Source: Candidatus Doudnabacteria bacterium (GTDB lineage Bacteria > Patescibacteriota > Doudnabacteria > UBA920). From it: DNA of 64,000 nucleotides. Both the position numbers and the translations under genes were made by a program. Below the pieces are notes generated by a model. It saw only the letters and a list, made by a program, of their open reading frames with translations. It searched no databases and was not told where the DNA came from. The stretch covers positions 840,717 to 904,716 of the forward strand of contig CAVYGQ010000001.1 of the NCBI GenBank assembly GCA_963768175.1, written 5' to 3'. This document shows positions 3,602 through 61,989 of the stretch, one piece after another. Position 1 is the stretch's first letter. Each line of letters starts with the position of its first letter.

Positions 3602-3612
3602 AAATAAGTAAT

Positions 3613-3666
3613 GTAGCGCGCCGATTTATCGGCAACTTGAGACAGCCCATAAATGGGCATGCTACG
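3613..3666. repeat. Compound palindromic intergenic repeat (copy 1 of 2; second copy at 55585-55637)
   Basis: GTAGCGCGCCGATTTATCGGCA...AGCCCATAAATGGGCA(T/C)GCTAC. Two inner palindromes, GCCGATTTATCGGC and GCCCATAAATGGGC, sit inside a GTAGCG/CGCTAC outer stem. Both copies carry identical 22-nt and 16-nt blocks. Confidence 0.8.
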
Positions 3667-3672
3667 CTGAGA

Positions 3673-4458
3673 TTATTTAAATGACACTAATACCGTAAAT
3701 TCTCCTTTAATGGAAGGTTTTTCTTTTAAAACATCAGAAACCTGCATCGGCGTACCGCGGATAAACTCTTCGTGCATTTTGGTGATTTCGCGGGCAATGA
3801 CGATTTGCGATGACGGAAAGGCATTGGTAATATAGTTTAAGGTTTTTAAAATCCGTTCCGGGGATTCATAAAAAATTGCTGTGGCTTCGGCATCGGCCGC
3901 GCTCTGCAGCGCCGAAACGGTTTTTGCCGCGGTTTTTTGTAAAAAACCCAAAAACATAAATTTATCGGTCGGCAAACCGGAGGCTGAAAGCGCGGCAATG
4001 GCGGCATTGGCTCCCGGGATCGGGACAACGGCCACATTTTCTTTTATGCACTCGCGCACCAAGCGAAAACCAGGATCGGAAATCCCGGGTGTGCCCGCAT
4101 CGGTAATTAAACAGCCGTCTTGTTTGGCCAGCCGGCGCGCCAGCTCTTTTACAATTTGTTGTTCGTTAAATTCCGCGAACTGAATAATTGGTTTCGCTGA
4201 AATTGCGAGGAGTGCATCCCGCCCCGACTCGCCGTCTTCGGCGAGGCGGGCCGACGAAGCAATCCCGTCTTTGTTTGAGATTGCCGCGCCCTCAGATGCA
4301 TTCGGGCTCGCAATTTCTAGACGTTCAATGTATTGCAGCAGCCTCCTGCTATATCCTGGATTTTCCGCAATAACAAAACTGCACGATTTTAAAGTTTCAA
4401 TCGCGCGCAGGGTTATGTCCCCCAGATTTCCTATTGGAGTCGCAACGATATACAACAT
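3673..4458 (-). CDS. rsmI: 16S rRNA (cytidine1402-2'-O)-methyltransferase RsmI, with an in-frame insertion of about 40 aa
   Basis: MLYIVATPIGNLGDITLRAIETL and ITDAGTPGISDPG motifs. An extra block, LEIASPNASEGAAISNKDGIASSARLAEDGESGRDALLAISAKP, is encoded by a GC-rich palindrome at 4205-4311. Confidence 0.8.
   Translation of the reverse strand: MLYIVATPIGNLGDITLRAIETLKSCSFVIAENPGYSRRLLQYIERLEIASPNASEGAAISNKDGIASSARLAEDGESGRDALLAISAKPIIQFAEFNEQQIVKELARRLAKQDGCLITDAGTPGISDPGFRLVRECIKENVAVVPIPGANAAIAALSASGLPTDKFMFLGFLQKTAAKTVSALQSAADAEATAIFYESPERILKTLNYITNAFPSSQIVIAREITKMHEEFIRGTPMQVSDVLKEKPSIKGEFTVLVSFK
4205..4311. repeat. GC-rich palindromic element inserted in frame in rsmI
   Basis: Arms gcgaggagtgcatc and gatgcattcgggctcgc are imperfect inverted repeats. 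The element contains nested hairpins ccgcc...ggcgg and ctcgccgtcttcggcgag and has higher GC than the flanking sequence. Confidence 0.65.
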
Positions 4459-11377: not shown

Positions 11378-12154
11378 CTATTGGTGTTTCAAAAACGGTT
11401 TTAATATTGGCGCGTATAAATCTTTTTTCGGCGGAATAACCAATTTGTGATATAAATCCTTTTTGGTAAACTTAACAAATTTCGCCCCTCTTAGCACCAC
11501 CACCGGCGTTTGCTCGCCGCCTTCGCCCATTATCAGCGCTCCCAAGTCCGCCAGCGTGTCCACCAAATTGCGCTGGGTGTATTTTAATTTGCGTTTAAAA
11601 ATATCTTTTTGTCCGCGGTAATCAAACAGTGGCTTTAACCCCCAAAAGCCGATGCTTACCCCTTGCGTTCCCCATCTTAGCGGCGTGGTGCGGCTGTCCA
11701 CGGCCACGGCCGCCAGTTTTTTTGTGCCAAATTTTGTTTGGTATCTTTTGACAATTTGTTTAAGTAATAAATTAACATTCTTCGGCCAAAGAATAAAATA
11801 ACCATTGCCGTTGCTTTCATCTATGCCGGCCGAAGGTATAAGCGTGTAGTCTTTAATGGTCAAAATAATTTCCGAATCGCCAATCATGTAAGCCGGCAAG
11901 CTAAAATCGGCTTCTTTTTTTACAAGCTGGTGTTTTTGGTTGTAGCGTGCCGATTTATCCGCCGTCGCTGAAGCTTTGGCGGACAAGTCGGCCTTCTCGA
12001 TTTTCACGCATCTGCCCTGATGAATCGCCAAAATCTTGGAAGCAATCAACAAAACATCGCCTTCTTTAAGCTTAGGCAGGCGTTTGTCCAGCTCTTGCAA
12101 AATGTCGTCCTTTGGCGGCAGGAACTTGCGGGTTTTTATGGGAATGAATTGCAT
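11378..12154 (-). CDS. CofE-like (F420-0:gamma-glutamyl ligase family) protein
   Basis: IPSAGIDESN and LLIASKILAIHQG regions resemble the F420_ligase domain. The family assignment is tentative. Confidence 0.45.
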   Translation of the reverse strand: MQFIPIKTRKFLPPKDDILQELDKRLPKLKEGDVLLIASKILAIHQGRCVKIEKADLSAKASATADKSARYNQKHQLVKKEADFSLPAYMIGDSEIILTIKDYTLIPSAGIDESNGNGYFILWPKNVNLLLKQIVKRYQTKFGTKKLAAVAVDSRTTPLRWGTQGVSIGFWGLKPLFDYRGQKDIFKRKLKYTQRNLVDTLADLGALIMGEGGEQTPVVVLRGAKFVKFTKKDLYHKLVIPPKKDLYAPILKPFLKHQ

Positions 12155-15692: not shown

Positions 15693-15770
15693 AATGAACA
15701 AAAATTAAAAAAATGACACAAATGAGCAAAAATGAACTGTGGTAATTTCCGTCATTTTTATTATTTTTTA
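15693..15770. repeat. AT-rich repeat AATGA(A)CAAAAATTAAAAAAATGACA with an inverted TGTCATTTTTATT arm (copy 1 of 4)
   Basis: Other copies are at 19073-19165, 42272-42368 and 54402-54440. Confidence 0.75.
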
Positions 15771-19072: not shown

Positions 19073-19165
19073 AAATGACAAAAATGAACAAAAATTAAAA
19101 AATGACAAAAGTTATTGCAGTAGTATTTTTGTCATTTTTATTATTTATTTAATTTTTGTCATTAT
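19073..19165. repeat. AT-rich TGACAAAAAT repeat element (copy 2)
   Basis: aaatgacaaaaatgaacaaaaattaaaaaatgacaaaag...tttttgtcatttttatt. Confidence 0.75.
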
Positions 19166-22459: not shown

Positions 22460-23924
22460 ACTGCCAAACGTCCGCGGCCGGTTTGCTGGCCGGGTTTTCT
22501 TTGAAGTAGATTTTACGATTCTTTAGGGGCGTCCAGTCAGACGGCGTGGAAATAAAGTCGCCGAGATAAGGTTTTGCAATATCCAGCACAAAATCGTGCG
22601 GCAAGTCGTCAGGCAGGCAAATACCTTTTTTCGGATTTTCAAACATCCATAGTACGGCGGCAATTACGCCTAGCGCGACCTGTAAAGTGGTGGCATTTTG
22701 GCCAGGTGCCAGCCTCCGGGCTTCCTGTATGCTTAAATCGCTCCCTGTCCACCAAGAATTATACCGATGCCCCATCAGTAGCGCGCCTAAAATGTCCGCC
22801 CCGGAAGTAATCTCATCTTCCAAAATTCTTATCTTGGACTGCATTTCGTAATTCCTGCCGCGAAGTTCGCATAAAGAAGATAGTGTTTCGTGGCACGGCA
22901 TATACGCGTAATGCACTGTCGGGCGGTAAACTGCCCTATCTCCATCCCAAACTGTTAACCTGTCGGATAACCCAAATGCTTCGCCGTGGCGAATGACCAT
23001 GCCCACAATTTCTTCGTTGGGAATCCATGACCTTACCCAGGTATTAATTCCCATTTGGGAGAGCATAATCTGATTTTTTGGCCCGTAAGGCGGAATATTA
23101 GCCAAGTCCGGTAGCCTTTGTTCGTGTGTGCCCCAACCCATCTCGGCCGGCGCGGTTCCTTCTTCCCGCAAGCCTTCCACGCTCCAGGTTCCTACAAATT
23201 CATCAACTTCTTTTGGGCGATTGGTAATTTGCGTGTCGCGCTCGCTGCAGTGGATTACTTTGATTCCCAATTTTTGTCCGAGCAAATTGAATTTGAGGTT
23301 TTTAATATAATTTTCCAGTTCTTCCCTGTCTTTGCCAGCCACTTTTTTATCTGCGATTGTTTTATTGCCGATATCAATCAATCCTTGTTTGACAAAATGG
23401 GAGATCAAACCGGGGTTTGCGCCATGGTCCACGACTGCCGTAGTGGCGTCTTTCCAGTCTTTGGACATGTCGTGCAGTTTCATTTGGCGCCAGTAAAGCG
23501 ATTTTTCAAATGGGCTGTCAGTAAATAATCCCTTAATGGAATCCCAGATTTCAACCGAAGTATTTACATACAAAACATTATGGTCGTGGCACCAGCCGAT
23601 AATATCATTAGCACCAATATTCCATGCCAAATCTATAATCAGGCCGCCCTTGTCTGTGTATTTGGCCAACTCCGGGCCTAGGTTTTCCGGCGTAATCCTG
23701 TTGCGTACAAATTTGATGCCCTTGTCCGTGAATTTTTTTAAAGCCGCTGCTTTGTCTTCAAAATCCATTACCGTGACGTTTTTTGGGTCAACCTCAATTT
23801 TTTCCAGCAGAATCGGCAGGGTGCACTGCGACACCGCGCCATAACCGATAATCAAAATTTTGCGGTCAAACTTTTTTTTTCCGCCGGAGGCGGATCCGCC
23901 TTTAGCGGACATACGTTTTTCCAT
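22434..23924 (-). CDS. hss: Homospermidine synthase / saccharopine-dehydrogenase-family enzyme
   Basis: NAD-binding N-terminus (ILIIGYGAVSQCTLPILLEK) and 496 aa. An in-frame AKGGSASGG cassette sits near the N-terminus. Confidence 0.55.
   Translation of the reverse strand: MEKRMSAKGGSASGGKKKFDRKILIIGYGAVSQCTLPILLEKIEVDPKNVTVMDFEDKAAALKKFTDKGIKFVRNRITPENLGPELAKYTDKGGLIIDLAWNIGANDIIGWCHDHNVLYVNTSVEIWDSIKGLFTDSPFEKSLYWRQMKLHDMSKDWKDATTAVVDHGANPGLISHFVKQGLIDIGNKTIADKKVAGKDREELENYIKNLKFNLLGQKLGIKVIHCSERDTQITNRPKEVDEFVGTWSVEGLREEGTAPAEMGWGTHEQRLPDLANIPPYGPKNQIMLSQMGINTWVRSWIPNEEIVGMVIRHGEAFGLSDRLTVWDGDRAVYRPTVHYAYMPCHETLSSLCELRGRNYEMQSKIRILEDEITSGADILGALLMGHRYNSWWTGSDLSIQEARRLAPGQNATTLQVALGVIAAVLWMFENPKKGICLPDDLPHDFVLDIAKPYLGDFISTPSDWTPLKNRKIYFKENPASKPAADVWQFENFRFIP
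23880..23903. repeat. 24-nt palindromic cassette AAAGGCGGATCCGCCTCCGGCGGA (in minus orientation) in frame in hss
   Basis: Identical 24-mers occur at 44773-44796 (murA) and 53990-54013 (murF). Each encodes KGGSASGG. Confidence 0.85.
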
Positions 23925-24247: not shown

Positions 24248-24359
24248 CTTCGCTAAAGCTACGAAGTGCGAGCAACTTAGTTGGTATGCTCATTTTAATA
24301 GTTAACTGTAAATTTTAGAAGCGAAGAAGTGCCCTACGTAGCCTTGGCGAAGTAGGGCA
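24248..24359. repeat. Inverted repeat CTTCTTCGC/GCGAAGAAG plus hairpin GCCCTAC-GTAGCCTTGGCGAAG-TAGGGC (conserved-loop REP-like motif)
   Basis: Loop motif CGTAGC(C/T)TT(G/A)GCGAAG occurs 5 times in the window: at 24248, 24338, 35448, 51493 and 61948. Confidence 0.7.
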
Positions 24360-32440: not shown

Positions 32441-32548
32441 GACGTCATTCCGAGCGCCTGCAATATCGCGCGAGGAATCTCTTATTGGCAGTTCGTTATT
32501 TAAGAGATCCTTCACCCTTCGGATGCACTCGGGGTTCAGGATGACGCC
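32441..32548. repeat. Palindromic element of the GGCGTCATYCTGA...TCAGGATGACGCC family (copy A, intergenic, degenerate left end)
   Basis: It shares the GAGATCCTTCACCCTTCGGATGCACTCGGGGTTCAGGATGACGCC right half with copies at 43990, 54177 and 57344. Confidence 0.8.
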
Positions 32549-35205: not shown

Positions 35206-35691
35206 TTATTTTTCCTCGTGTATTTTACGTATAACTTCGTCTATATGCTGCACATATCTCGGGCTAGTGTCTAGATGGAAGCTTATTCGGGGAATGACTT
35301 TGGTGGCAAAGTGCTTGTTAACTTCGCCCTGGAGGTCGTAAATGTTTTTTCCCAAAAATGTTAAGATTTTATAGTCCAAAGATAGAGCAGTCTGAGATTT
35401 TTTATCAGCCTGCGACAAACTTTTTTTCCCTCTCCCTTCTTGCCCGCCGTAGCCTTGGCGAAGGCGGGTGGGAGAGGGTGCCCCAAGCCCGTCTTGGGGC
35501 GGGTGAGGGTCTGGGTTAAAAATAGAAATCCAAATTTTGGCGTACTTCATATCTTTGCTGGTTTCCACTTTGGTTATGGTCACCAGGCCTTTTTGCCAAT
35601 CCAAAAATTTATGCAAAACCGGCCCCAATTCGTGCTGGATTAAGGAGTTTACCTTAGCTATGCGGTTGGTGTCTTTTTTTACCGGCTTCAT
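35206..35691 (-). CDS. rbfA: Ribosome-binding factor A with an in-frame insertion of about 40 aa
   Basis: RIAKVNSLIQHELGPVL and the C-terminal KH-like part match RbfA. The middle segment NPDPHPPQDGLGAPSPTRLRQGYGGQEGRGKK is encoded by a GC-rich hairpin element. Confidence 0.75.
   Translation of the reverse strand: MKPVKKDTNRIAKVNSLIQHELGPVLHKFLDWQKGLVTITKVETSKDMKYAKIWISIFNPDPHPPQDGLGAPSPTRLRQGYGGQEGRGKKSLSQADKKSQTALSLDYKILTFLGKNIYDLQGEVNKHFATKVIPRISFHLDTSPRYVQHIDEVIRKIHEEK
35427..35516. repeat. REP-like hairpin element in frame in rbfA (conserved loop GTAGCCTTGGCGAAG)
   Basis: cccgcc-GTAGCCTTGGCGAAG-gcggg, the flanking cctctccc/gggagagg stem and a second hairpin gccccaag...cttggggc. Confidence 0.7.
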
Positions 35692-42266: not shown

Positions 42267-42271
42267 AAAAG

Positions 42272-42368
42272 AAATGACAAAAATTAAAAAAATAATAAAA
42301 ATGACAAAAATAAATGGGCCTATAATTTTTGCTCATTTATGCCAATTTTGTCATTTTTGCTCATTACC
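42272..42368. repeat. AT-rich TGACAAAAAT repeat element (copy 3)
   Basis: aaatgacaaaaattaaaaaaataataaaaatgacaaaaat...ttttgtcatttttgctcatt. Confidence 0.75.
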
Positions 42369-43989: not shown

Positions 43990-44075
43990 GGCGTCATCCT
44001 GAGCGTAGCGAAGGATCTCATTAAAGAAAGAGATTCTTCACCCTTCGGATGCTACTTCAGGTTCAGAATGACGCC
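43990..44075. repeat. Palindromic element GGCGTCATCCTGAGC...TTCAGAATGACGCC (copy B, intergenic, upstream of murA)
   Basis: Terminal inverted repeats plus an internal palindrome, GAAGGATCTC..GAGATTCTTC. Confidence 0.8.
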
Positions 44076-44094: not shown

Positions 44095-45648
44095 ATGCAA
44101 AACCTTATAAAGGATCAGCAGAAAATCGGCCAGTTTATAGCCGAAGTCCGTGAGCTTAAAGGCTTTACCCAAAGCCAGTTTGCCAAAAGCTTAAAAACCA
44201 GCCAGTCAGCCGTAGCCAGGATGGAAAGCGGCCAGCAAAACTTAACTACAGAGATGCTGGCTAAGATTAGCGCAGTTTTGAACCATGAAATTATTACGTT
44301 GGCCGACAAGTCGGTAAATTTTAAAATAGAAGGCGGGCGGAAACTTTCGGGAAGGGTCGCGGTTAATACTTCCAAGAATGCCGCGGTGGCGCTGTTGTGC
44401 GCTTCTTTGCTTAATGAAGGTAAAACTATTTTTAAGAATGTGCCTAAAATAGAGGAAGTCTACCGGGTAATTGAAGTTTTGGTCAGTCTTGGCGTCTCGG
44501 TAAAATGGCAGGGCGCGGATGTGGAAATTTTGCCGGGCAAAAAAATTACCATAAATAAAATAGACAAAGAAGCCGCGGTTAAAACCAGAAGCGTTCTTAT
44601 GCTGCTTGGGCCTTTGGCTCATATTCTTCCCGCTTTTAACCTGCCTTTGGCCGGCGGCTGCAAACTGGGCGAACGGACCGTGAGGCCGCATTTGTTTGCT
44701 TTGGAAAAGCTTGGAGTTAAAATTCAGACCCATCATGACCATTACGCCGTAAGCTCGGCTAAAGCTCCCGCCAAAGGCGGATCCGCCTCCGGCGGAAAAA
44801 CCGCGGAGGTAGTGCTTTACGAAATGGGTGACACAGTGACGGAAAACACGCTTATGGCCGCGGCAAAAATAAACGGCGTGACCACCATCAAGCTGGCCTC
44901 TTCCAATTACATGGTGCAGGATTTATGTCATTTTTTGCAAAGTTTGGGCGTAAAAATTGAAGGCGTGGGTACCTCCACCTTAAAAGTGCATGGCAAACCG
45001 CACATTAACCAGCGTGTGGTCTTTTATTTAAGCGAAGACCCCATAGAAGCCATGCTGTTTTTGTCTTTGGCTGTCACCACAAATTCTTCCATAACCGTTG
45101 AGCGCTGCCCCATAGACTTTTTGGAGCTGGAACTGTTGAAATTGGAAAAGATGGGGTTTAAGTACCGGATTATTAAGCGTTATAAAAGCCATAACGGTAT
45201 TACCAATTTGGCAGATATTAAGACTTTCCCGTCTAAATTAATCGCGCTGGAAGAAAAAATCCACCCGTTGACGTCCTCGGCCGGAATTAATATAGATAAC
45301 CTGCCGTTTTTTGTGCCCATTGCCACCCAGGCCAAAGGCACCACGCTGATTCACGACTGGGTTTACGAAAATCGCGCTATTTACTATTTGGAATTAAATA
45401 AGCTGCGGGCCAATATAATTTTGGCCGACGCCCACCGCGTTTACATAGACGGCCCGACCGAACTTAAAGCAGGCGAAGTCATTTGTCCCCCTGCCCTGCG
45501 CCCGGCCGCGATAATTCTAATTGCGATGTTAGCCGCCAAAGGCACCTCTATTCTCCGCAACGTTTATTCCATAAACCGCGGCTATGAGAATTTGGTGCAG
45601 CGATTACAGAAGCTCGGAGCCAAGATCGAAATGATACATGGCATGTAA
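44095..45648 (+). CDS. murA: UDP-N-acetylglucosamine 1-carboxyvinyltransferase fused to an N-terminal XRE-type HTH domain
   Basis: Residues 1-65 form an HTH_3 domain (IGQFIAEVRELKGFTQSQFAKSLKTSQSAVARMESGQQNL). The MurA core follows (KLSGRVAVNTSKNAA...). An in-frame AKGGSASGG cassette is also present. Confidence 0.85.
   Translation: MQNLIKDQQKIGQFIAEVRELKGFTQSQFAKSLKTSQSAVARMESGQQNLTTEMLAKISAVLNHEIITLADKSVNFKIEGGRKLSGRVAVNTSKNAAVALLCASLLNEGKTIFKNVPKIEEVYRVIEVLVSLGVSVKWQGADVEILPGKKITINKIDKEAAVKTRSVLMLLGPLAHILPAFNLPLAGGCKLGERTVRPHLFALEKLGVKIQTHHDHYAVSSAKAPAKGGSASGGKTAEVVLYEMGDTVTENTLMAAAKINGVTTIKLASSNYMVQDLCHFLQSLGVKIEGVGTSTLKVHGKPHINQRVVFYLSEDPIEAMLFLSLAVTTNSSITVERCPIDFLELELLKLEKMGFKYRIIKRYKSHNGITNLADIKTFPSKLIALEEKIHPLTSSAGINIDNLPFFVPIATQAKGTTLIHDWVYENRAIYYLELNKLRANIILADAHRVYIDGPTELKAGEVICPPALRPAAIILIAMLAAKGTSILRNVYSINRGYENLVQRLQKLGAKIEMIHGM
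44773..44796. repeat. 24-nt palindromic cassette AAAGGCGGATCCGCCTCCGGCGGA in frame in murA
   Basis: Identical to the copies in hss and murF. Confidence 0.85.
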
Positions 45649-45713: not shown

Positions 45714-48209
45714 ATGGCGGAAACAAACAACAATTTGGGTTTATCATCAGCCGAAGCCGCTAGCAGATTAAGGCAGTACGGCTATAACGAAATTGCGGAA
45801 AGCAAAAGGCTATCCGGGCTTTTGGCTTTTTTGTTAAGGTTCCGCAATCCGCTGGTGCTGATTTTGGTCTTTGCGGCTACGATATCAGCTGTAACCGGGG
45901 ATCCCGTCAGTGCGCTGATTATCATCAGTATTGTACTGCTGTCCGTTATCTTAGATTTTTTTAATACCTACAAATCCCAAAAAGCCGCGGAAGAGCTGAT
46001 AGAAAAAGTGGAAATTACAGCCGAGGTATTGAGAGGCGGCATAGTGACTCCCCTGCCGCTGCGCTTGATTGTGCCCGGAGACGTGGTGGAACTTGAGGCC
46101 GGAGACGTAATTCCCGCAGACGGCAAAATTTTAAGCGCCAAAGATTTATTTTTGAACGAATCTTCGCTAACCGGCGAATCTTTTCCCGCGGAAAAGCAGG
46201 AAGGCTTGCCTATTTTTTTGGGAACCAACGTGGTTACCGGCACTGGCCGGATGCTGGTGGAAGTTACGGGTAAAAAAACCAAGTTCAGCAAAATCGCGGA
46301 AAGTCTGGAAGCGCCGGAAAGGCCTACGGATTTTGACCGCAGCATAAAAGATTTTAGCTACTTAATTATGAAGATAACTTTTGTCTTGGTTATCTTTATT
46401 TTTTTGGTTAACGCCATACTCAAAGGCAGCACTTATATTTTGGAGTTGTTTTTGTTTGCCGCGGCCTTGGCCGTGGGCTTGACGCCGGAGCTTTTGCCCA
46501 TGATTATTACGCTTAATTTATCCAAGGGCTCTTTGGCCATGTCCAAGCACGGCGTAATTGTAAAAAAACTATCGGCCATCCAAAACTTTGGCGCTATGGA
46601 TGTATTGTGCACCGATAAAACCGGCACGTTGACGGAAGACAGGATTGAACTGGTCAAGTACGTGGACGCCGAGGGCAAGCCGGATGAAAACATTTTTAAG
46701 TACGCTTACCTTTCCAGCAGTTTCCGCAGCGGCTTTAAGAATCCGCTGGATGTGGCTGTAAAAAATTTCAAGATGTTTGATATTGGCGGCAAATCCGCCT
46801 TCGCTGAAGCTTCGGCGGATGACTCGCTATCAAATATATTAATGGGAGTCAAAAAAATAGACGAAATCCCCTTTGATTACCGGCGCAAGCGCGATTCCAT
46901 TATCGTGAAAACTTCTCAAGGCTATGAGCTTATTTCCAAAGGCGCGCCTGAAGAAATGTTTGAGACCTGCAGTTTTTATAGCCAGATGGGTAAAAAACTC
47001 ACCCCTACTATAGCCAAAAAATTGGAAAAAGAATATCAGGCTTTAAGTGCCGACGGCTTTAGGGTTTTGGCTGTGGCCTGCAAGACGCTTCCGGAAAAAA
47101 CGGCATACGAAAAAGAAGACGAAAGGGATTTGGTTATATTGGGCTTTATTGCTTTTTTGGATCCGCCCAAAAAGAGCGTGACCGAAACCCTGCGGACTTT
47201 GGAAAATTATGGCATCGCCATAAAAGTTATTACCGGCGATAACGAAATTATTACCAAAAAAATCGCTCAGGAAATTAATTTGCCCGTTTTGGGCAGTTTG
47301 ACCGGGGCAGAGATAGAAAAATTGACCGATCGGCAGCTAGCAATAGATGCGGAGAAAACTACAGTTTTTGCGCGCGTTACGCCGGAACAAAAAAAGCGCA
47401 TTATTTTGGCTTTGCAAAAAAATAAACACGTAGTCGGGTTTATGGGCGATGGTATAAATGACGCGCCGTCGCTTAAGACCGCGGACGTGGGCATTTCGGT
47501 TAACAACGCGGTGGACGTGGCCAAGGAATCGGCCGATTTAATTTTATTGCACAAGAGTTTAAAGGAGCTGGCTTTAGGCGTTATCCAGGGCCGCAAAACT
47601 TTTGCCAATACTTTAAAGTATTTAATGATGGGTTTGAGCTCAAATTTCGGCAATATGTTTTCCATGGCCGGAGCATCCATGTTTTTTCCGTTTTTGCCCA
47701 TGCTGCCGGCCCAGATTTTGCTAAATAATCTGCTGTATGACGGCTCGCAGTTTGTCATTCCGCTGGACAATGTGGATGAGCAGGACATTGCCAGGCCACG
47801 GCAAATGAAGATCCATTTTTTGCGCAGATTTATGGTGGTTTTTGGCATTTTAAGTTCGGTGTTTGATTTTGTGACGTTTTTAGTGTTAACTTTTGTCTTC
47901 CATTATACCAACCACTACTTCCAGACCGGCTGGTTTATTACCTCTTTTGCCACGCAAATTTTAGTGGTATTTGTTATCCGCACCAAGCAGGTGCCGTTTT
48001 TCAAAAGCAAGCCGGCTAAGTCCTTAGTTATTTCCGTGTTTAGTTTTTTGGCTTTAGCCCTGCTTTTGGCCTTAGGCCCGATAAAAAATATCTTCGGCTT
48101 TGCCCCGCTTTCGCTGGCCATGGTTTTAAGCGCTTTCCTTATTACCCTGCTCTATTTAATCTGTATTGAGTTCGCCAAAAGCAAATTTTACCAATATGTT
48201 TCGGAATAA
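45714..48209 (+). CDS. Cation-transporting P-type ATPase (MgtA-like)
   Basis: DKTGTLT, TGDN and GDGINDAPSL motifs, 831 aa. Confidence 0.8.
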   Translation: MAETNNNLGLSSAEAASRLRQYGYNEIAESKRLSGLLAFLLRFRNPLVLILVFAATISAVTGDPVSALIIISIVLLSVILDFFNTYKSQKAAEELIEKVEITAEVLRGGIVTPLPLRLIVPGDVVELEAGDVIPADGKILSAKDLFLNESSLTGESFPAEKQEGLPIFLGTNVVTGTGRMLVEVTGKKTKFSKIAESLEAPERPTDFDRSIKDFSYLIMKITFVLVIFIFLVNAILKGSTYILELFLFAAALAVGLTPELLPMIITLNLSKGSLAMSKHGVIVKKLSAIQNFGAMDVLCTDKTGTLTEDRIELVKYVDAEGKPDENIFKYAYLSSSFRSGFKNPLDVAVKNFKMFDIGGKSAFAEASADDSLSNILMGVKKIDEIPFDYRRKRDSIIVKTSQGYELISKGAPEEMFETCSFYSQMGKKLTPTIAKKLEKEYQALSADGFRVLAVACKTLPEKTAYEKEDERDLVILGFIAFLDPPKKSVTETLRTLENYGIAIKVITGDNEIITKKIAQEINLPVLGSLTGAEIEKLTDRQLAIDAEKTTVFARVTPEQKKRIILALQKNKHVVGFMGDGINDAPSLKTADVGISVNNAVDVAKESADLILLHKSLKELALGVIQGRKTFANTLKYLMMGLSSNFGNMFSMAGASMFFPFLPMLPAQILLNNLLYDGSQFVIPLDNVDEQDIARPRQMKIHFLRRFMVVFGILSSVFDFVTFLVLTFVFHYTNHYFQTGWFITSFATQILVVFVIRTKQVPFFKSKPAKSLVISVFSFLALALLLALGPIKNIFGFAPLSLAMVLSAFLITLLYLICIEFAKSKFYQYVSE

Positions 48210-51485: not shown

Positions 51486-51515
51486 TGCCCTACGTAGCCT
51501 TGGCGAAGTAAGGGC
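51486..51515. repeat. REP-like hairpin GCCCTAC-GTAGCCTTGGCGAAGTA-AGGGC abutting the tRNA-Ala(GGC) 5' end
   Basis: The same loop motif as at 24338 and 35448. Confidence 0.7.
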
Positions 51516-52819: not shown

Positions 52820-54403
52820 ATGGACTTGTTTGTTCCAAAATTTATCCAATACCAATTATACCTGCTCCAGCTGGAAAATTATGAGCTGGGAAGGTATTGG
52901 AAATTGCTTATAAAAAAGGGAGTTTTCCCTAAAAAAAGCCAACCTTTGCGCAAAGAGCTGGTCTGGACCGCTAAAGCTCGGGCGTTAATGCTTATGGCTG
53001 TGGCCCTGCATGGTTTGGTGGTCGTTTTGGTTGGGCTTATGGTTTTAACTTTAAAGCCGGGCATAGATAACTTTTTTACCACAATAATTTTGGCGGTATT
53101 AATTTTGTTGCCGTTTTATTTTGTTTTTTTCAGTCTGGCTTTGTTAATCCTTAAGCCTTTGGACACTCTGGTAAAACAAAGCCTTGTGGCTAAAGCCAAA
53201 ACCAAGCTGGCTGGATTGCCTGATGTCAAGATAATCGGCGTTGCCGGCAGTTACGGCAAAACTACAATGAAGGAAGTGTTGAGGGCAGTGCTAAGTGCTA
53301 AGTTCAAAGTGCTAAGTACGCCGGAGAGCATAAACACGCCGGTGGGGATTGCCAGATGGATTATAAATAAAATAACGGACGAAACCCAAATTCTGATTGT
53401 AGAAATGGGGGAGCATTATGAGAAAGACGTTAAAGAAATTTGCGATATAGCAAAACCCGACATCGCGGTGGTTACCGGCATTAACGAATCCCACTTGGAG
53501 CGGATGAAAAAAATGGATACGGTTATTGCCACAATTTTTGAAATCGTGAGTAACGCCCAGCCCGGCGCGGCTATTGTGCTAAACGGCGATGATCGCAGGG
53601 TTATGGAGAATTATAAAAAATTTGTCTGGCCAGACCATCGGCTGGAATTTTTTACAAAAAATCCCGGCAGTGAAAAGTGTAAAGTGAAAAGTGCAAAGTT
53701 TAACACAGACAAGCTGTGTTGGAATTTAGAGATTGATGATCTTGGCTCGGTAGAACTGGATTTACTTGGGGAATACGCGTTGGGCGACGTTGACGCGGCC
53801 GTGAAAATTGCCAAAAGTTTGGGTATGAGCAATGAGCAAATTATCGCGGGGATCAAAAATATCAAGCCCGTGGAGCACAGGCTCCAGCCGATAAAGTCTG
53901 CCACGAATGTTTTGGTAATAGACGACAGTTACAACGGCAATTCCGACGGAGTAGTGGAAGCCATAAAAGTTTTGTCGCGCTTTTCCGCCAAAGGCGGATC
54001 CGCCTCCGGCGGAGAAGGCCGCCGGAAGATTTATATCACTCCCGGGCTGGTGGAAATAGGCAAAAGTTCCGCCGATATTCATCGCAGTATTGGCAAACAG
54101 CTGGCGGACGTTGCGGATGTGGTTATTTTGATAAAAAATAGCGCGACGGGGTTTATTGAAGAGGGAATCCTCTTAGGGCGTCATTCTGACCCTGAGCGGA
54201 GCGAAGGGGAAGAATCTCAAACTAAGGATAAAGAGATCCTTCGTCCCTCGGATGCACTCGGGGCTCAGGATGACGCCGCTGGTAAGAGACCAAGAATTAT
54301 CTGGTTTAATTCCGCCTTGGAAGCGTACGCGGGGCTAAAAGACATTTTAAAACCCGGGGATGTAATTTTGTTTCAGAACGATTGGGGAGACCAGTATTTG
54401 TAA
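52820..54403 (+). CDS. murF: UDP-N-acetylmuramoyl-tripeptide--D-alanyl-D-alanine ligase with an N-terminal TM extension and two in-frame repeat insertions
   Basis: Mur ligase ATP-binding motif GVAGSYGKTTMKE. Two in-frame inserts are present: the KGGSASGG cassette at 53990 and a palindromic element of about 100 nt at 54177-54277. Confidence 0.85.
   Translation: MDLFVPKFIQYQLYLLQLENYELGRYWKLLIKKGVFPKKSQPLRKELVWTAKARALMLMAVALHGLVVVLVGLMVLTLKPGIDNFFTTIILAVLILLPFYFVFFSLALLILKPLDTLVKQSLVAKAKTKLAGLPDVKIIGVAGSYGKTTMKEVLRAVLSAKFKVLSTPESINTPVGIARWIINKITDETQILIVEMGEHYEKDVKEICDIAKPDIAVVTGINESHLERMKKMDTVIATIFEIVSNAQPGAAIVLNGDDRRVMENYKKFVWPDHRLEFFTKNPGSEKCKVKSAKFNTDKLCWNLEIDDLGSVELDLLGEYALGDVDAAVKIAKSLGMSNEQIIAGIKNIKPVEHRLQPIKSATNVLVIDDSYNGNSDGVVEAIKVLSRFSAKGGSASGGEGRRKIYITPGLVEIGKSSADIHRSIGKQLADVADVVILIKNSATGFIEEGILLGRHSDPERSEGEESQTKDKEILRPSDALGAQDDAAGKRPRIIWFNSALEAYAGLKDILKPGDVILFQNDWGDQYL
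53990..54013. repeat. 24-nt palindromic cassette AAAGGCGGATCCGCCTCCGGCGGA in frame in murF
   Basis: Identical to the copies in hss and murA. Confidence 0.85.
54177..54277. repeat. Palindromic element GGCGTCATTCTGA...CTCAGGATGACGCC (copy C), inserted in frame near the murF C-terminus
   Basis: It encodes GRHSDPERSEGEESQTKDKEILRPSDALGAQDDAA and keeps the reading frame. Confidence 0.85.
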
Positions 54404-54440
54404 TGACAAAAATTAAAAAAATGACATAATTGACAAAAAT
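54402..54440. repeat. AT-rich TGACAAAAAT repeat (copy 4, short) between murF and alr
   Basis: taatgacaaaaattaaaaaaatgacataattgacaaaaatt. Confidence 0.7.
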
Positions 54441-54442
54441 TC

Positions 54443-55588
54443 ATGGGGACAATCGGAAAAATTTTTAATAAGATAGTATCACCAAAAATTAACTATCAAC
54501 CGCTTATAGAAGTGAGGATTTTTAAAGATGCCTTGCTGCATAATTTACACGTTTTCCAAGAAAAATATCCGAGCCTTGAGTTTGCCCCAGTGATAAAAAG
54601 CAACGCTTACGGACACGGTATGGTACAGGTGGCAAAAATTTTTGACAGCAAACCCAAAGCTTTTTTTATGGTGGACTCATTTTATGAGGCTTTGGTGTTA
54701 AGGCGCGCCGGAATTAAATCTAAAATTTTAATGCTGGGTTTTAACCGGATTGAGCAATTGATTAACCCCAAATTAAAAAATTGTTCCTCGGCGATTATTG
54801 ATTTCTCCACTTTGCAGGAAGTGGTGGCAAAATTAAAAAAGCCGGCGATCTTTCATCTCAAGATTGATACGGGTATGCACCGGCAGGGACTGTGGGGGGA
54901 AGAAGTAAATAAGGCAATTGCGTTAATCAAGTCTAACCCAAACTTTAATTTGGAGGGCTTATGCAGCCATTTGGCGGATGCCGACGGGGCTGGGCAGGAT
55001 TTTACCAAACAGCAGATTAGACTGTGGAATCAAGTCGTGGAAAAATTCAAACAAAACTTTCCCTCCATTAAATATTTCCATTTAGCCAATACCGCCGGGA
55101 CTTTTTATACCAACGAAATTACGGCCAACGTGGCGCGCATCGGCATCGGGCTGTATGGGTTAAATAATTCACAGTTTGAAAAGTTGGACTTAAAACCGGC
55201 TTTGGAAATGGCCTCTATTGTCACTTCCGTAAAAACTATTCCGGCTGGGGAGAAAATCGGTTACAATATAACTTATGAGGCGCCGAAAGAAACAAAAATC
55301 GCCACCGTACCGGCGGGATTCAACGAAGGCGTGGACCGCAGGCTTTCAAATAAAGGATTTTACCAAATTAAGGGGCAAAACTGTCCTTTGCGGGGCAAGG
55401 TGAGCATGAACATAAGCAGCGTGGAAGTAACCAGTGTCCCTGGAGTTAAAGTGGGGGATGAGGTGGTAATTATAAGCCGAAATCCGAGCGATAAAAATTC
55501 GGTGGAAAATATTGCCAAAATGTGCGACACGGTACATTACGAAATTCTGGTTCATATACCTTCTATATTAAGAAGAATAATAGTGTAG
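54443..55588 (+). CDS. alr: Alanine racemase
   Basis: PLP-lysine motif VIKSNAYGHG, 381 aa. Confidence 0.88.
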   Translation: MGTIGKIFNKIVSPKINYQPLIEVRIFKDALLHNLHVFQEKYPSLEFAPVIKSNAYGHGMVQVAKIFDSKPKAFFMVDSFYEALVLRRAGIKSKILMLGFNRIEQLINPKLKNCSSAIIDFSTLQEVVAKLKKPAIFHLKIDTGMHRQGLWGEEVNKAIALIKSNPNFNLEGLCSHLADADGAGQDFTKQQIRLWNQVVEKFKQNFPSIKYFHLANTAGTFYTNEITANVARIGIGLYGLNNSQFEKLDLKPALEMASIVTSVKTIPAGEKIGYNITYEAPKETKIATVPAGFNEGVDRRLSNKGFYQIKGQNCPLRGKVSMNISSVEVTSVPGVKVGDEVVIISRNPSDKNSVENIAKMCDTVHYEILVHIPSILRRIIV

Positions 55589-55637
55589 CGCGCCGATTTA
55601 TCGGCATCCTAAGATAGCCCATAAATGGGCACGCTAC
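55585..55637. repeat. Compound palindromic intergenic repeat (copy 2 of 2)
   Basis: GTAGCGCGCCGATTTATCGGCA...AGCCCATAAATGGGCACGCTAC. Confidence 0.8.
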
Positions 55638-57010: not shown

Positions 57011-57739
57011 ATGACTTTTAGATACGAAAACCAAAAGTACAAACAAGGCTATAGCCATGTTATCGGCTGTGATGAAGTGGGTAAGGGCAGTTTGGCCGGG
57101 CCGGTGGTCGCGGTGGCAATAATATTGGATTTAAGATGTAAGATTAAAGATTTAAGCGAAGTCAGGGATAGTAAAATGTTGTCTCAAGAACAGAGGGAAA
57201 AACTTCAACCATTGATAAAGCAACATTGCCTGGCTTGGGGGATAGGCGTAGTCGATGAAAAAACTATAGACAAAATAAATATTCACCGCGCAACCTTGGC
57301 CGCGATGAAACTGGCTGTGGGAAATTTGTTGGCCTCTTTCTCCGGCGTCATTCTGAGGCCAAAGTGCTACTCCGAGGCTGAAGAATCTCAAACCGGGAAG
57401 AGATCCTTCGCCCGCACTGATAACTCCAGGGAACGGGCCCAGGATGACGCCGCTAAAGGAGTTTTGGTAGCCATAGACGGCAAGTTTATTATCCCCGATT
57501 TGAATTTGGAACAGGAAGCCGTAGTAGGAGGCGACAATAAAATTCTTTCCGTTGCTGCTGCCTCCATTGTTGCCAAAGTTTACCGCGATGATTTGATGCG
57601 CAAGCTTCATCGTCAATATCCGGTTTACAATTTTGCCCGGCACAAAGGCTACGGCACTTTGTTTCATCGAACAATGATTAAACAAAATGGTCTGTCGCCA
57701 ATACATCGCAGAAGTTTTTGCAAAAACCTATCAATTTAA
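57011..57739 (+). CDS. rnhB: Ribonuclease HII with an in-frame palindromic element insertion
   Basis: DEVGKGSLAGPVVAVA (DEVGRG motif). It is 242 aa against about 200 typical. The insert at 57344-57452 encodes VILRPKCYSEAEESQTGKRSFARTDNSRERAQDDAA. Confidence 0.85.
   Translation: MTFRYENQKYKQGYSHVIGCDEVGKGSLAGPVVAVAIILDLRCKIKDLSEVRDSKMLSQEQREKLQPLIKQHCLAWGIGVVDEKTIDKINIHRATLAAMKLAVGNLLASFSGVILRPKCYSEAEESQTGKRSFARTDNSRERAQDDAAKGVLVAIDGKFIIPDLNLEQEAVVGGDNKILSVAAASIVAKVYRDDLMRKLHRQYPVYNFARHKGYGTLFHRTMIKQNGLSPIHRRSFCKNLSI
57344..57452. repeat. Palindromic element GGCGTCATTCTGA...CCCAGGATGACGCC (copy D), in frame in rnhB
   Basis: Terminal inverted repeats shared with copies A, B and C. Confidence 0.85.
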
Positions 57740-61936: not shown

Positions 61937-61947
61937 GAGTAGTGAAT

Positions 61948-61971
61948 CCGCCTTCGCTAAAGCTACGGCGG
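61948..61971. repeat. REP-like hairpin CCGCC-TTCGCTAAAGCTAC-GGCGG (loop motif in reverse orientation)
   Basis: The loop is the reverse complement of CGTAGCYTTRGCGAA. Confidence 0.65.
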
Positions 61972-61989
61972 ACAAGTAGGATAAAACAC

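Follow-up and report, generated by a model that had tools for sequence, protein, structure and literature searches.

In-frame head-to-head hairpin dimers, probably of the CGTC-tagged repeat class, in core genes of a Candidatus Doudnabacteria genome

Introduction

The GTAG-tagged class of repetitive extragenic palindromes (REPs) has a transposase of its own, the REP-associated tyrosine transposase (RAYT), which is an enzyme of the HUH Y1 type. Another class, the CGTC-tagged REPs, was described by Di Nocera, De Gregorio and Rocco (2013, BMC Genomics 14:522; PMC3733652) as hairpins headed by an unpaired CGTC (or TGTC/CCTC) tag, in which a stem of 8–9 bp beginning with A and T closes a loop of 4–5 nt and is followed by an unpaired 3-nt tail with the consensus CCA. 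They occur mostly as head-to-head dimers with the tags outside, often as heterodimers, and include intragenic copies; unlike the GTAG REPs, they have no dedicated transposase. Their hosts were given as Proteobacteria (mainly alpha, sphingomonads included), Chlorobi, Bacteroidetes, Spirochaetes and Thermotogae, and the Neisseria repeat dRS3 as well as the palindromic elements RPE-4 and RPE-6 of Rickettsia conorii were equated with CGTC families in the same work (PMC3733652). REP doublets that form hairpins and are mobilised by RAYT are called REPINs (Bertels and Rainey 2011; PMC3116915, PMC3337134), and the Rickettsia palindromic elements (RPEs; RPE-1 and others) have been reviewed (PMC10969869). 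Here we report on a palindromic element of about 100 nt that has four copies, two of them inside murF and rnhB, in a stretch of 64,000 nt from a Candidatus Doudnabacteria bacterium (assembly GCA_963768175.1, contig CAVYGQ010000001.1, positions 840,717 to 904,716 of the forward strand). This stretch, hereafter the window, is the readable 64 kb of a 949,077-bp contig. The element is probably a non-autonomous, selfish head-to-head heterodimer of CGTC-tagged REP-type hairpins, belonging to the class of dRS3 and RPE-4/RPE-6 and having a REPIN-like build.

Results

Each element is a head-to-head pair of hairpin units

Four full copies were found in the window, at 32441–32548 and 43990–44075 between genes, at 54177–54277 in murF and at 57344–57451 in rnhB. 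A preliminary description, made from the letters of the window alone, had located all four at these positions, except that it let the last one end at 57452; its naming of the host and neighbouring genes as murF, rnhB, pyrD and murA agrees with Pfam. The terminal 13-mer GGCGTCATYCTGA had 10 matches in the window at two mismatches or fewer, where 1.63 were expected and none of 100 shuffles reached 10, and eight of the 10 are the ends of the four copies. Among these ends, the left one of copy 1 is GACGTCATTCCGA (two mismatches from the 13-mer), the right one of copy 2 is TCAGAATGACGCC (with A where the other copies have G) and the right one of copy 4 is CCAGGATGACGCC. The four copies could be aligned end to end with 47 invariant columns, each of them folded better than its own shuffles (z = −2.9 to −6.8), and their G+C content was 49–58% against 44% for the window. 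When the window was searched by nhmmer with a profile built from 50 related elements and with all filters off (--max), exactly these four full copies were returned (E = 1e-16 to 1e-22) along with one weak match at about 4231–4323, which turned out to be a diverged fifth relative at 4201–4316 in rsmI. An independent Logan assembly of run ERR10755942 encodes an identical RNase HII of 242 aa that has the insert too, which argues against an assembly artefact.

One genome per species was scanned for both termini of the element, and at least 105 loci were obtained; the matches listed include Saccharibacteria, Doudnabacteria, other Patescibacteria, Terriglobia/Acidobacteriota, several Sphingomonas species and Hymenobacter. 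In the loci of the Candidate Phyla Radiation (CPR) and of acidobacteria, each half of the element reads CGTC-AT-YCT-GA-(variable stem-loop)-GA-RGR-AT-CTC. In 50 of 50 scored elements, the variable pyrimidine of the left end finds its partner in the left inner motif, and that of the right inner motif in the right end, whereas the two ends of an element mismatch each other in 40 of the 50. The CPR loci comprise 41 dimers, with 47 TCT-type and 47 CCT-type units, numbers that fit one unit of each type per element. The variable pair of the base stem was U-A in 25 units and C-G in 23 in the RNAalifold output, and the first two pairs of the stem (AT...AT) were nearly constant (alignment columns 7–53, A-U, paired in 50/50; columns 8–52, U-A, in 48/50). 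Since conserved tandem G·A/A·G mismatches break each stem (CTGA-G...C-GA-AG), RNAalifold predicted only the 5-bp base stem on half units, and the inner stems were counted directly instead. These variable inner stems had 174 canonical pairs out of 184 (94.6%), compared to 69 ± 2.6% when the partner arms were shuffled (maximum 80% in 1000 shuffles). There were 37 distinct inner stems, and in none of the 14 parsable elements did the two halves share one. On the alignment of full elements, a model of two hairpins was 98.3% paired with co-variation above all of 500 shuffles, while a model of a single long hairpin was 94.4% paired, left one position unpaired in 46 of the 50 sequences and showed no excess over shuffles. 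As judged from this co-variation, the element consists of two separate hairpin units joined head to head, and it is the half-hairpin that evolution has conserved. The inverted ends and inner motifs from which the preliminary description had composed terminal inverted repeats and an inner palindrome are indeed present, but they do not make up such an anatomy: they co-vary within halves and the ends mismatch.

Most units are 33–48 nt long and consist of two stem segments split by the tandem G·A mismatches, with tips of at least 6 nt; only the minimal units of 26 nt (ATYCTGAGC-GAA-GCGAAGRAT, with two G·A pairs) come near a stem of 8–9 bp with a loop of 4–5 nt. The 3-nt CTC that follows the stem is complementary to the GAG of the partner unit, with pairing in 92.7% of cells. 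In the window, 4/4 copies are head-to-head dimers with no solitary unit, and 8/8 of their units begin with CGTC-AT. A TGC-type relative in the closest genome begins with TGTC, and the diverged rsmI copy has GAAATTGC in place of the CGTC tag.

The copy in murF (54177–54277, plus strand, 101 nt; nhmmer E = 1.8e-22) lies in frame in the part encoding the C-terminal domain and encodes GRHSDPERSEGEESQTKDKEILRPSDALGAQDDAA. On the sense strand its TCT-type half comes before the CCT-type half. The left hairpin unit (54179–54216, plus strand; core TGAGCGGAGCGAA) has the CGTC tag, a base stem ATTCT/AGAAT, the G·A/A·G mismatches and an inner stem CCC/GGG, and folds alone at −13.7 kcal/mol. It is followed by an A-rich spacer (54217–54234, plus strand; CTCAAACTAAGGATAAAGAG), in which CTC and GAG are able to pair, and by the right hairpin unit (54235–54275, minus strand; E = 1.9e-13), whose minus-strand reading is CGTCATCCTGAGCCCCGAGTGCATCCGAGGGACGAAGGATC. 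The host gene murF (52820–54403, plus strand) encodes 527 aa with Pfam Mur_ligase_M and Mur_ligase_C domains, and its best matches in the Protein Data Bank (PDB) are MurF proteins.

Regarding the other copies, that in rnhB (57344–57451, plus strand) has 108 nt, is in frame and encodes GVILRPKCYSEAEESQTGKRSFARTDNSRERAQDDAA; its host gene (57011–57739, plus strand) encodes 242 aa, in which Pfam RNase_HII was matched in two stretches. Copy 1 (32441–32548, plus strand) begins 6 nt downstream of the pyrD stop codon and lies 70 nt before a tRNA gene. Its left unit has a TCC/GGA base stem, in which the change is compensated within its own half and not by the other end, and its right unit has CCT/AGG. 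This left unit (CGTCATTCCGAGCG...CGCGAGGAATC) seems very close to Neisseria dRS3, which reads CGTCATTCCCGC-GCAG-GCGGGAATCC. Copy 2 (43990–44075, minus strand) has 86 nt and the opposite orientation, with the CCT half first on the plus strand; it ends 19 nt upstream of the murA start codon, and one of its units is the minimal 26-nt form CGTCATCCTGAGCGTAGCGAAGGATC. The diverged relative (4201–4316, minus strand), which sits in frame in the open reading frame (ORF) of rsmI (3673–4458, minus strand), has a TGC/GCA base stem (GAAATTGCGAG...CTCGCAATTTC) and an extra small palindrome nested in one hairpin tip.

Other arrangements were seen outside the CPR loci. On a metagenome contig of 1.28 Mb (Ga0207422_1000009, locus L145:1605–2997), four solitary half units (TGTCATCCTGAGGAGACTATTGTCGACGAAGGATATCAAAC...) stand in direct orientation around a GIY-YIG gene, an arrangement not seen in the CPR loci. 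In Sphingomonas (L003, L004 and about 30 others among the matches listed) the element is 100 nt long and very uniform. It shares the 13-nt ends, its terminal hairpins are perfectly paired (ATCCTGAACTCGTTTCAGGAT) and a long central stem is present, without the G·A mismatches. The Hymenobacter actinosclerus version of the element, which has an extended palindrome (L028:2465–2651), matched Rfam RF04119 (the precursor of plant MIR1858) with 106 bits on one strand and 101 bits on the other (E = 1.7e-18, below the gathering threshold of 137). RF04119 may therefore have been built on a palindromic repeat of bacterial type.

The inserts of MurF and RNase HII are lineage-specific and predicted to lie in loops

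The copies in murF and rnhB contain no stop codons and add 35 aa to MurF (residues about 455–490) and 37 aa to RNase HII (residues 112–148), with a mean hydropathy (GRAVY) of −1.59 and −1.26, respectively, so that the in-frame, hydrophilic insertions that had been noted for both genes are borne out. Peptide stretches at the junctions of the inserts read ...GILLGRHSDPER..., ...AQDDAAGK... and ...SFSGVILRPK.... The RNase HII of Thermotoga maritima aligns on either side of residues 112–148 with nothing between its own residues 100 and 101, and the MurF of this species is devoid of the 35-aa segment as well as of a second segment of 11 aa. Likewise, residues 46–91 of RsmI have no counterpart in PDB entry 3kwp.

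The RNase HII site was hypervariable among 40 CPR orthologues: some loops belong to the same family (GVILRP...EESQ...AQDD), some read GVIPSE...GRDD, some CHCE...PRND, and several are empty. Of 120 MurF orthologues, about half are empty at the corresponding position, and the rest carry the window family or other repeat-encoded peptides. In the closest relative, whose MurF is 75% identical and whose gene order is the same from the hydrolase gene to the lyase gene, murF has an element of the same family at the same site. One of its halves has a different hairpin tip, and the inner stem of the other half is changed in a compensated way (GCCGT/ACGGC versus GTCCC/GGGGC). The rnhB gene of this relative contains a TGC-type element (TGTCATTGCGAGG...CCTCGCAATGACA) four codons from the site used in the window, indicating that the rnhB loop was hit independently. 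From these alignments, in which the segments are missing in orthologues from other bacteria and in solved structures, the inserts of MurF and RNase HII are seen to be lineage-specific and not ancestral, in line with what the preliminary description had expected of an orthologue comparison.

AlphaFold modelled RNase HII and MurF with a mean predicted local distance difference test (pLDDT) score of 86.6 and 85.2, respectively. The RNase HII insert had a pLDDT of 46–57 and was placed between helix 83–109 and strand 151–156 with the DG motif of the catalytic Asp, and the MurF insert had a pLDDT below 50 for residues 461–487 and was placed between helix 445–456 and strand 492–496. The inserts are thus predicted as low-confidence coil between confident secondary-structure elements, and these models support the suggestion, also made earlier, that they are tolerated in surface loops. 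About 130 N-terminal residues of MurF were modelled as long helices with hydrophobic stretches in place of the usual N-terminal domain.

Gene-internal copies in CPR bacteria keep the reading frame

When the CPR loci were inspected, with the window and the closest relative included, about a quarter of the copies were gene-internal. There were 13 such copies, of which 13/13 were in frame and open (3/3 in frame and stop-free in the window). Hosts of eight of the 13 were supported by Pfam, namely TatD, MnmA, CarA, Lgt, a glycosyltransferase, YchF, an M24 peptidase and LeuRS. By sequence inspection, the MnmA site is occupied in a second genome too, a Wzy-type ligase has copies at one and the same site in two genomes, and a helicase has a copy in one genome. 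No gene-breaking copy was found among the CPR copies examined; apparent cases were neighbouring genes or genes ending on the TGA of the element. In four genes of CPR relatives (loci L020, L031, L050 and L097), which end ...ASS*, the element begins at the 3′ end and its own CCTGA provides the stop codon (GCG TCA TCC TGA). Within genes the A-rich spacer was preferred on the sense strand by 11 to 2.

The insertion signature and the search for a mobiliser

Target-site duplication was not detected beyond chance, as the two flanks matched in 15/110 cases at 1 nt, 3/110 at 2 nt and 1/110 at 3 nt. The sole signal in the flanks was that a pyrimidine preceded the element in 94/110 cases and a purine followed it in 89/110. 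The loci showed no insertion sequence (IS) bearing these ends, although no systematic search for one was made, and none of 2.9 million viral contigs had a match that would point to phage carriage. Small GIY-YIG nuclease genes adjoin elements in two distant genomes (L107 and L071) and were considered as partners, but units stood near only 2 of 46 metagenome GIY-YIG loci and the candidate was dropped. Rfam at gathering thresholds found only tRNAs in the window, and a permissive scan of the murF copy gave only chance matches to miRNA-like hairpins. Hammerhead or box C/D-like motifs around CUGA...GA were also rejected, as their spacing and conserved bases do not fit and Rfam gave no match.

Other repeats and features of the window

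The window holds further palindromic repeats. A second family (CCGCCAAAGGCGGATCCGCCTCCGGCGG, two small GC hairpins) occurs at 53984–54016 in murF, at 44768–44800 in murA and at 23876–23908 at the 5′ end of a saccharopine-dehydrogenase ORF, and is in frame in MurF and MurA as AKGGSASGG. Its 10-aa insert in MurF was present in 4/120 orthologues, always at the identical site, and had a pLDDT below 50. Inverted dimers resembling GTAG-tagged REPs (TGTAGCGCGCCGATTTATCGGC ... GCCCATAAATGGGCATGCTAC) were found at 3609–3665, just 3′ of rsmI, at 55581–55637, overlapping the alr stop codon, and at 11941–11962. Their two hairpins differ by compensatory changes (CCGAT/ATCGG versus CCCAT/ATGGG), and their presence shows that repeats of the GTAG and CGTC classes coexist in this genome. 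Two more small GC-rich palindromic families lie at 46793–46827, 11957–11991 and 61946–61980, and at 35441–35468, 24330–24357 and 51486–51513. One copy of these is inside a P-type ATPase ORF (45714–48209), one is inside rbfA (35206–35691), which Pfam matches over only half of the domain model, and two others are directly upstream of tRNA genes. An A-rich intergenic motif (AATGACAAAAATTAAAAAAATGACA...), which may be a promoter or operator-like site, occurs in both orientations at 15698–15731, 19078–19111, 42268–42319 and 54406–54439, one copy being between murF and alr. In MurA (44095–45648) an N-terminal HTH_3 (XRE-type) domain is fused to the EPSP-synthase fold.

Discussion

The reading that we favour, a selfish CGTC-tagged dimer, is carried by several results of the comparative analysis. 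Matching loci show a repeat family with copies in many CPR genomes, so that further copies beyond the window, which the preliminary description had made a test of its proposal, exist in number; pairing is conserved within the halves; and orthologous genes have inserts present or absent, or of differing family, at the same loop. In this element, a unit with the base stem ATTCT/AGAAT is joined by a short A-rich spacer to a unit with the base stem ATCCT/AGGAT. Copies would spread by way of a single-stranded DNA hairpin recognised by a trans-acting enzyme, since conserved mismatches in the hairpins, together with an inverted dimeric build and the lack of a duplication, mark elements that are processed as single-stranded DNA, for which the GTAG REPs and REPINs with RAYT are the known example. 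In a genome of roughly 1 Mb with little spacer DNA, genic copies would persist only if in frame, stop-free and in a tolerant surface loop; purifying selection would leave, among the genic insertions, the frame-keeping ones in such loops, and in MurF, RNase HII and RsmI the survivors would, once translated, form a loop of about 35 aa that is disordered and hydrophilic.

Several points weigh against this reading. No mobilising enzyme was found in the 64 kb read of the 949-kb contig, and nothing similar to Y1 or RAYT proteins was found in the window or the 105 loci, although the seed sequences used made this a weak test. Because loci were collected with a pattern that demanded both termini, part of the constancy of the ends among them was built in. 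The murF copy, when folded whole as one single strand, has a long hairpin as its minimum-energy fold (−52.9 kcal/mol, versus about −13 to −14 per half), and thermodynamics alone gives no preference for two separate hairpins; both folds are physically available, and it is by co-variation that the halves are recognised as what evolution conserves. In the size of stem (8–9 bp) and loop (4–5 nt), the units depart from the four described CGTC families, and it is from intact ORFs that the inserts are predicted to be translated. Moreover, the copies within the window are more alike than the orthologous murF copy is, which would follow from recent activity or equally from gene conversion between immobile copies.

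Among other explanations, a host-beneficial DNA or RNA structure under selection, for example a hairpin that stabilises mRNA, a terminator or a site bound by a protein, with the coding copies as by-products or as translation regulators of cell-wall genes, would account for the pairing kept by compensatory changes, gene-internal copies included, and for the place of copy 1 right behind pyrD. Roles of this sort have been suggested for REPs (PMC3733652), and for the intergenic copies the explanation keeps some plausibility. Overall we nevertheless regard it as unlikely, because the hairpins of the intergenic copies are not followed by a U/T run, no Rfam family was matched, the positions differ between relatives, families replace one another at one site, and the host genes are functionally unrelated. 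A conventional miniature inverted-repeat transposable element (MITE), that is, an IS deletion derivative moved by a DDE transposase acting on the 13-nt terminal inverted repeats and inserted with target-site duplication, would have the right size, since 80–110 nt is typical of MITEs, and would explain why inverted 13-mers are conserved at both ends across phyla. We consider it improbable all the same: duplications did not exceed chance, the ends systematically mismatch each other while each co-varies with the inner motif of its own half, solitary half units exist, viral contigs were free of matches, and a crude test over about 0.8 Mb of loci revealed no transposase-like ORF beside the copies. 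Of the earlier proposal of an RPE- or MITE-like selfish repeat, it is thus the RPE-like behaviour that survives the tests, while the target-site duplication of a MITE is lacking.

The same inserts might instead be removed after transcription or translation in the manner of introns or inteins, leaving host proteins without the extra loop. The RNase HII insert does lie about 7 residues before the strand of the catalytic Asp, and several lineages have inserts at the same sites, as homing elements do; yet removal would require neither the frame nor the freedom from stops that every gene-internal copy of the CPR loci has kept, no ribozyme or intron was matched in Rfam, the elements encode no protein domain, and the bias of the A-rich sense orientation in genes fits a constraint on the encoded peptide, all of which makes this explanation very improbable. 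An ancestral, fast-evolving linker of CPR proteins that resembles the intergenic repeats by coincidence would agree with both sites being hypervariable loops in CPR orthologues. This is scarcely credible, given that genic and intergenic copies align over their full length at the DNA level with the E values of the profile search, and that most orthologues and all solved homologues are without the segment.

If the selfish dimer is accepted, the CGTC-tagged REP and RPE phenomenon would extend to the CPR and the Acidobacteriota. In genomes of roughly 1 Mb, a sizeable share of the copies is inside core enzymes (MurF, MurA, RNase HII, RsmI, MnmA, LeuRS, YchF and others) and predicted to be translated, and for the annotation and modelling of CPR proteins this means that much "lineage-specific insertion" may be repeat-encoded, which also bears on the origin of new protein loops. 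The minimal gene sets of CPR bacteria offer a small search space for the transposase of CGTC REPs and RPEs. A further proposition is that CGTC-type dimers are active in CPR now and that a few loops of essential genes are invaded by them time and again, or see one dimer displaced by another, through a preference for site or structure that goes beyond survivorship; this seems to us unlikely. If it were true, a comparison of CPR genomes that have the family with those that lack it, at about a thousand genes each, could lead to the enzyme by which CGTC REPs and Rickettsia RPEs are moved.

As for novelty, Patescibacteria are unmentioned in the paper on CGTC REPs (PMC3733652), in a REP survey of 2025 (PMC12306157) and in the searchable full-text literature, to which extent the earlier remark that no such family was known from this lineage stands. 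Compared to bacterial MITEs (Correia, ERIC, Nezha), the window family is likewise small, with inverted ends and occasional in-frame gene fusions, but it has neither target-site duplication nor a parent IS that was seen, and its ends belong to separate hairpins. REPINs share with it the two inverted units of imperfect palindromes with a spacer, the ability of the whole to form one long hairpin, the non-autonomous nature and the similarity of copies within a genome; they differ in that their tag is GTAG instead of CGTC, and that they are extragenic, whereas the window family is often in frame in genes. With RPEs it has in common that palindromic repeats of about 100–150 bp have entered unrelated housekeeping genes without loss of the reading frame, in a genome that is reduced, and encode a peptide compatible with the protein fold. 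The host phylum is another one, and the link to RPE-4/RPE-6 rests on the CGTC classification of PMC3733652 and not on sequence comparison; still, the RPE analogy may reflect common membership of a superfamily and not only resemblance.

The likeness to the CGTC REPs themselves lies in the tag, the A-T start of the stem, the head-to-head dimers, the heterodimers and the intragenic copies, and sphingomonads, which are known hosts, provided matching loci here too. On the other hand, the stems of the window family are longer than 8–9 bp and contain one or two conserved tandem G·A/A·G mismatches, the tips are variable or hold nested modules instead of loops of 4–5 nt, the 3 nt after the stem are CTC, which can pair across the spacer, and not CCA, and Patescibacteria and Acidobacteriota are outside the five phyla of PMC3733652. 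Because the family has the tag, the AT start, the head-to-head and heterodimeric arrangement and the intragenic copies, but not the stem and loop dimensions, we place it in the CGTC superfamily as a further family and not in families 1–4. The window adds to a class already known, by way of a new lineage and a somewhat aberrant family; it does not reveal an element of a new kind.

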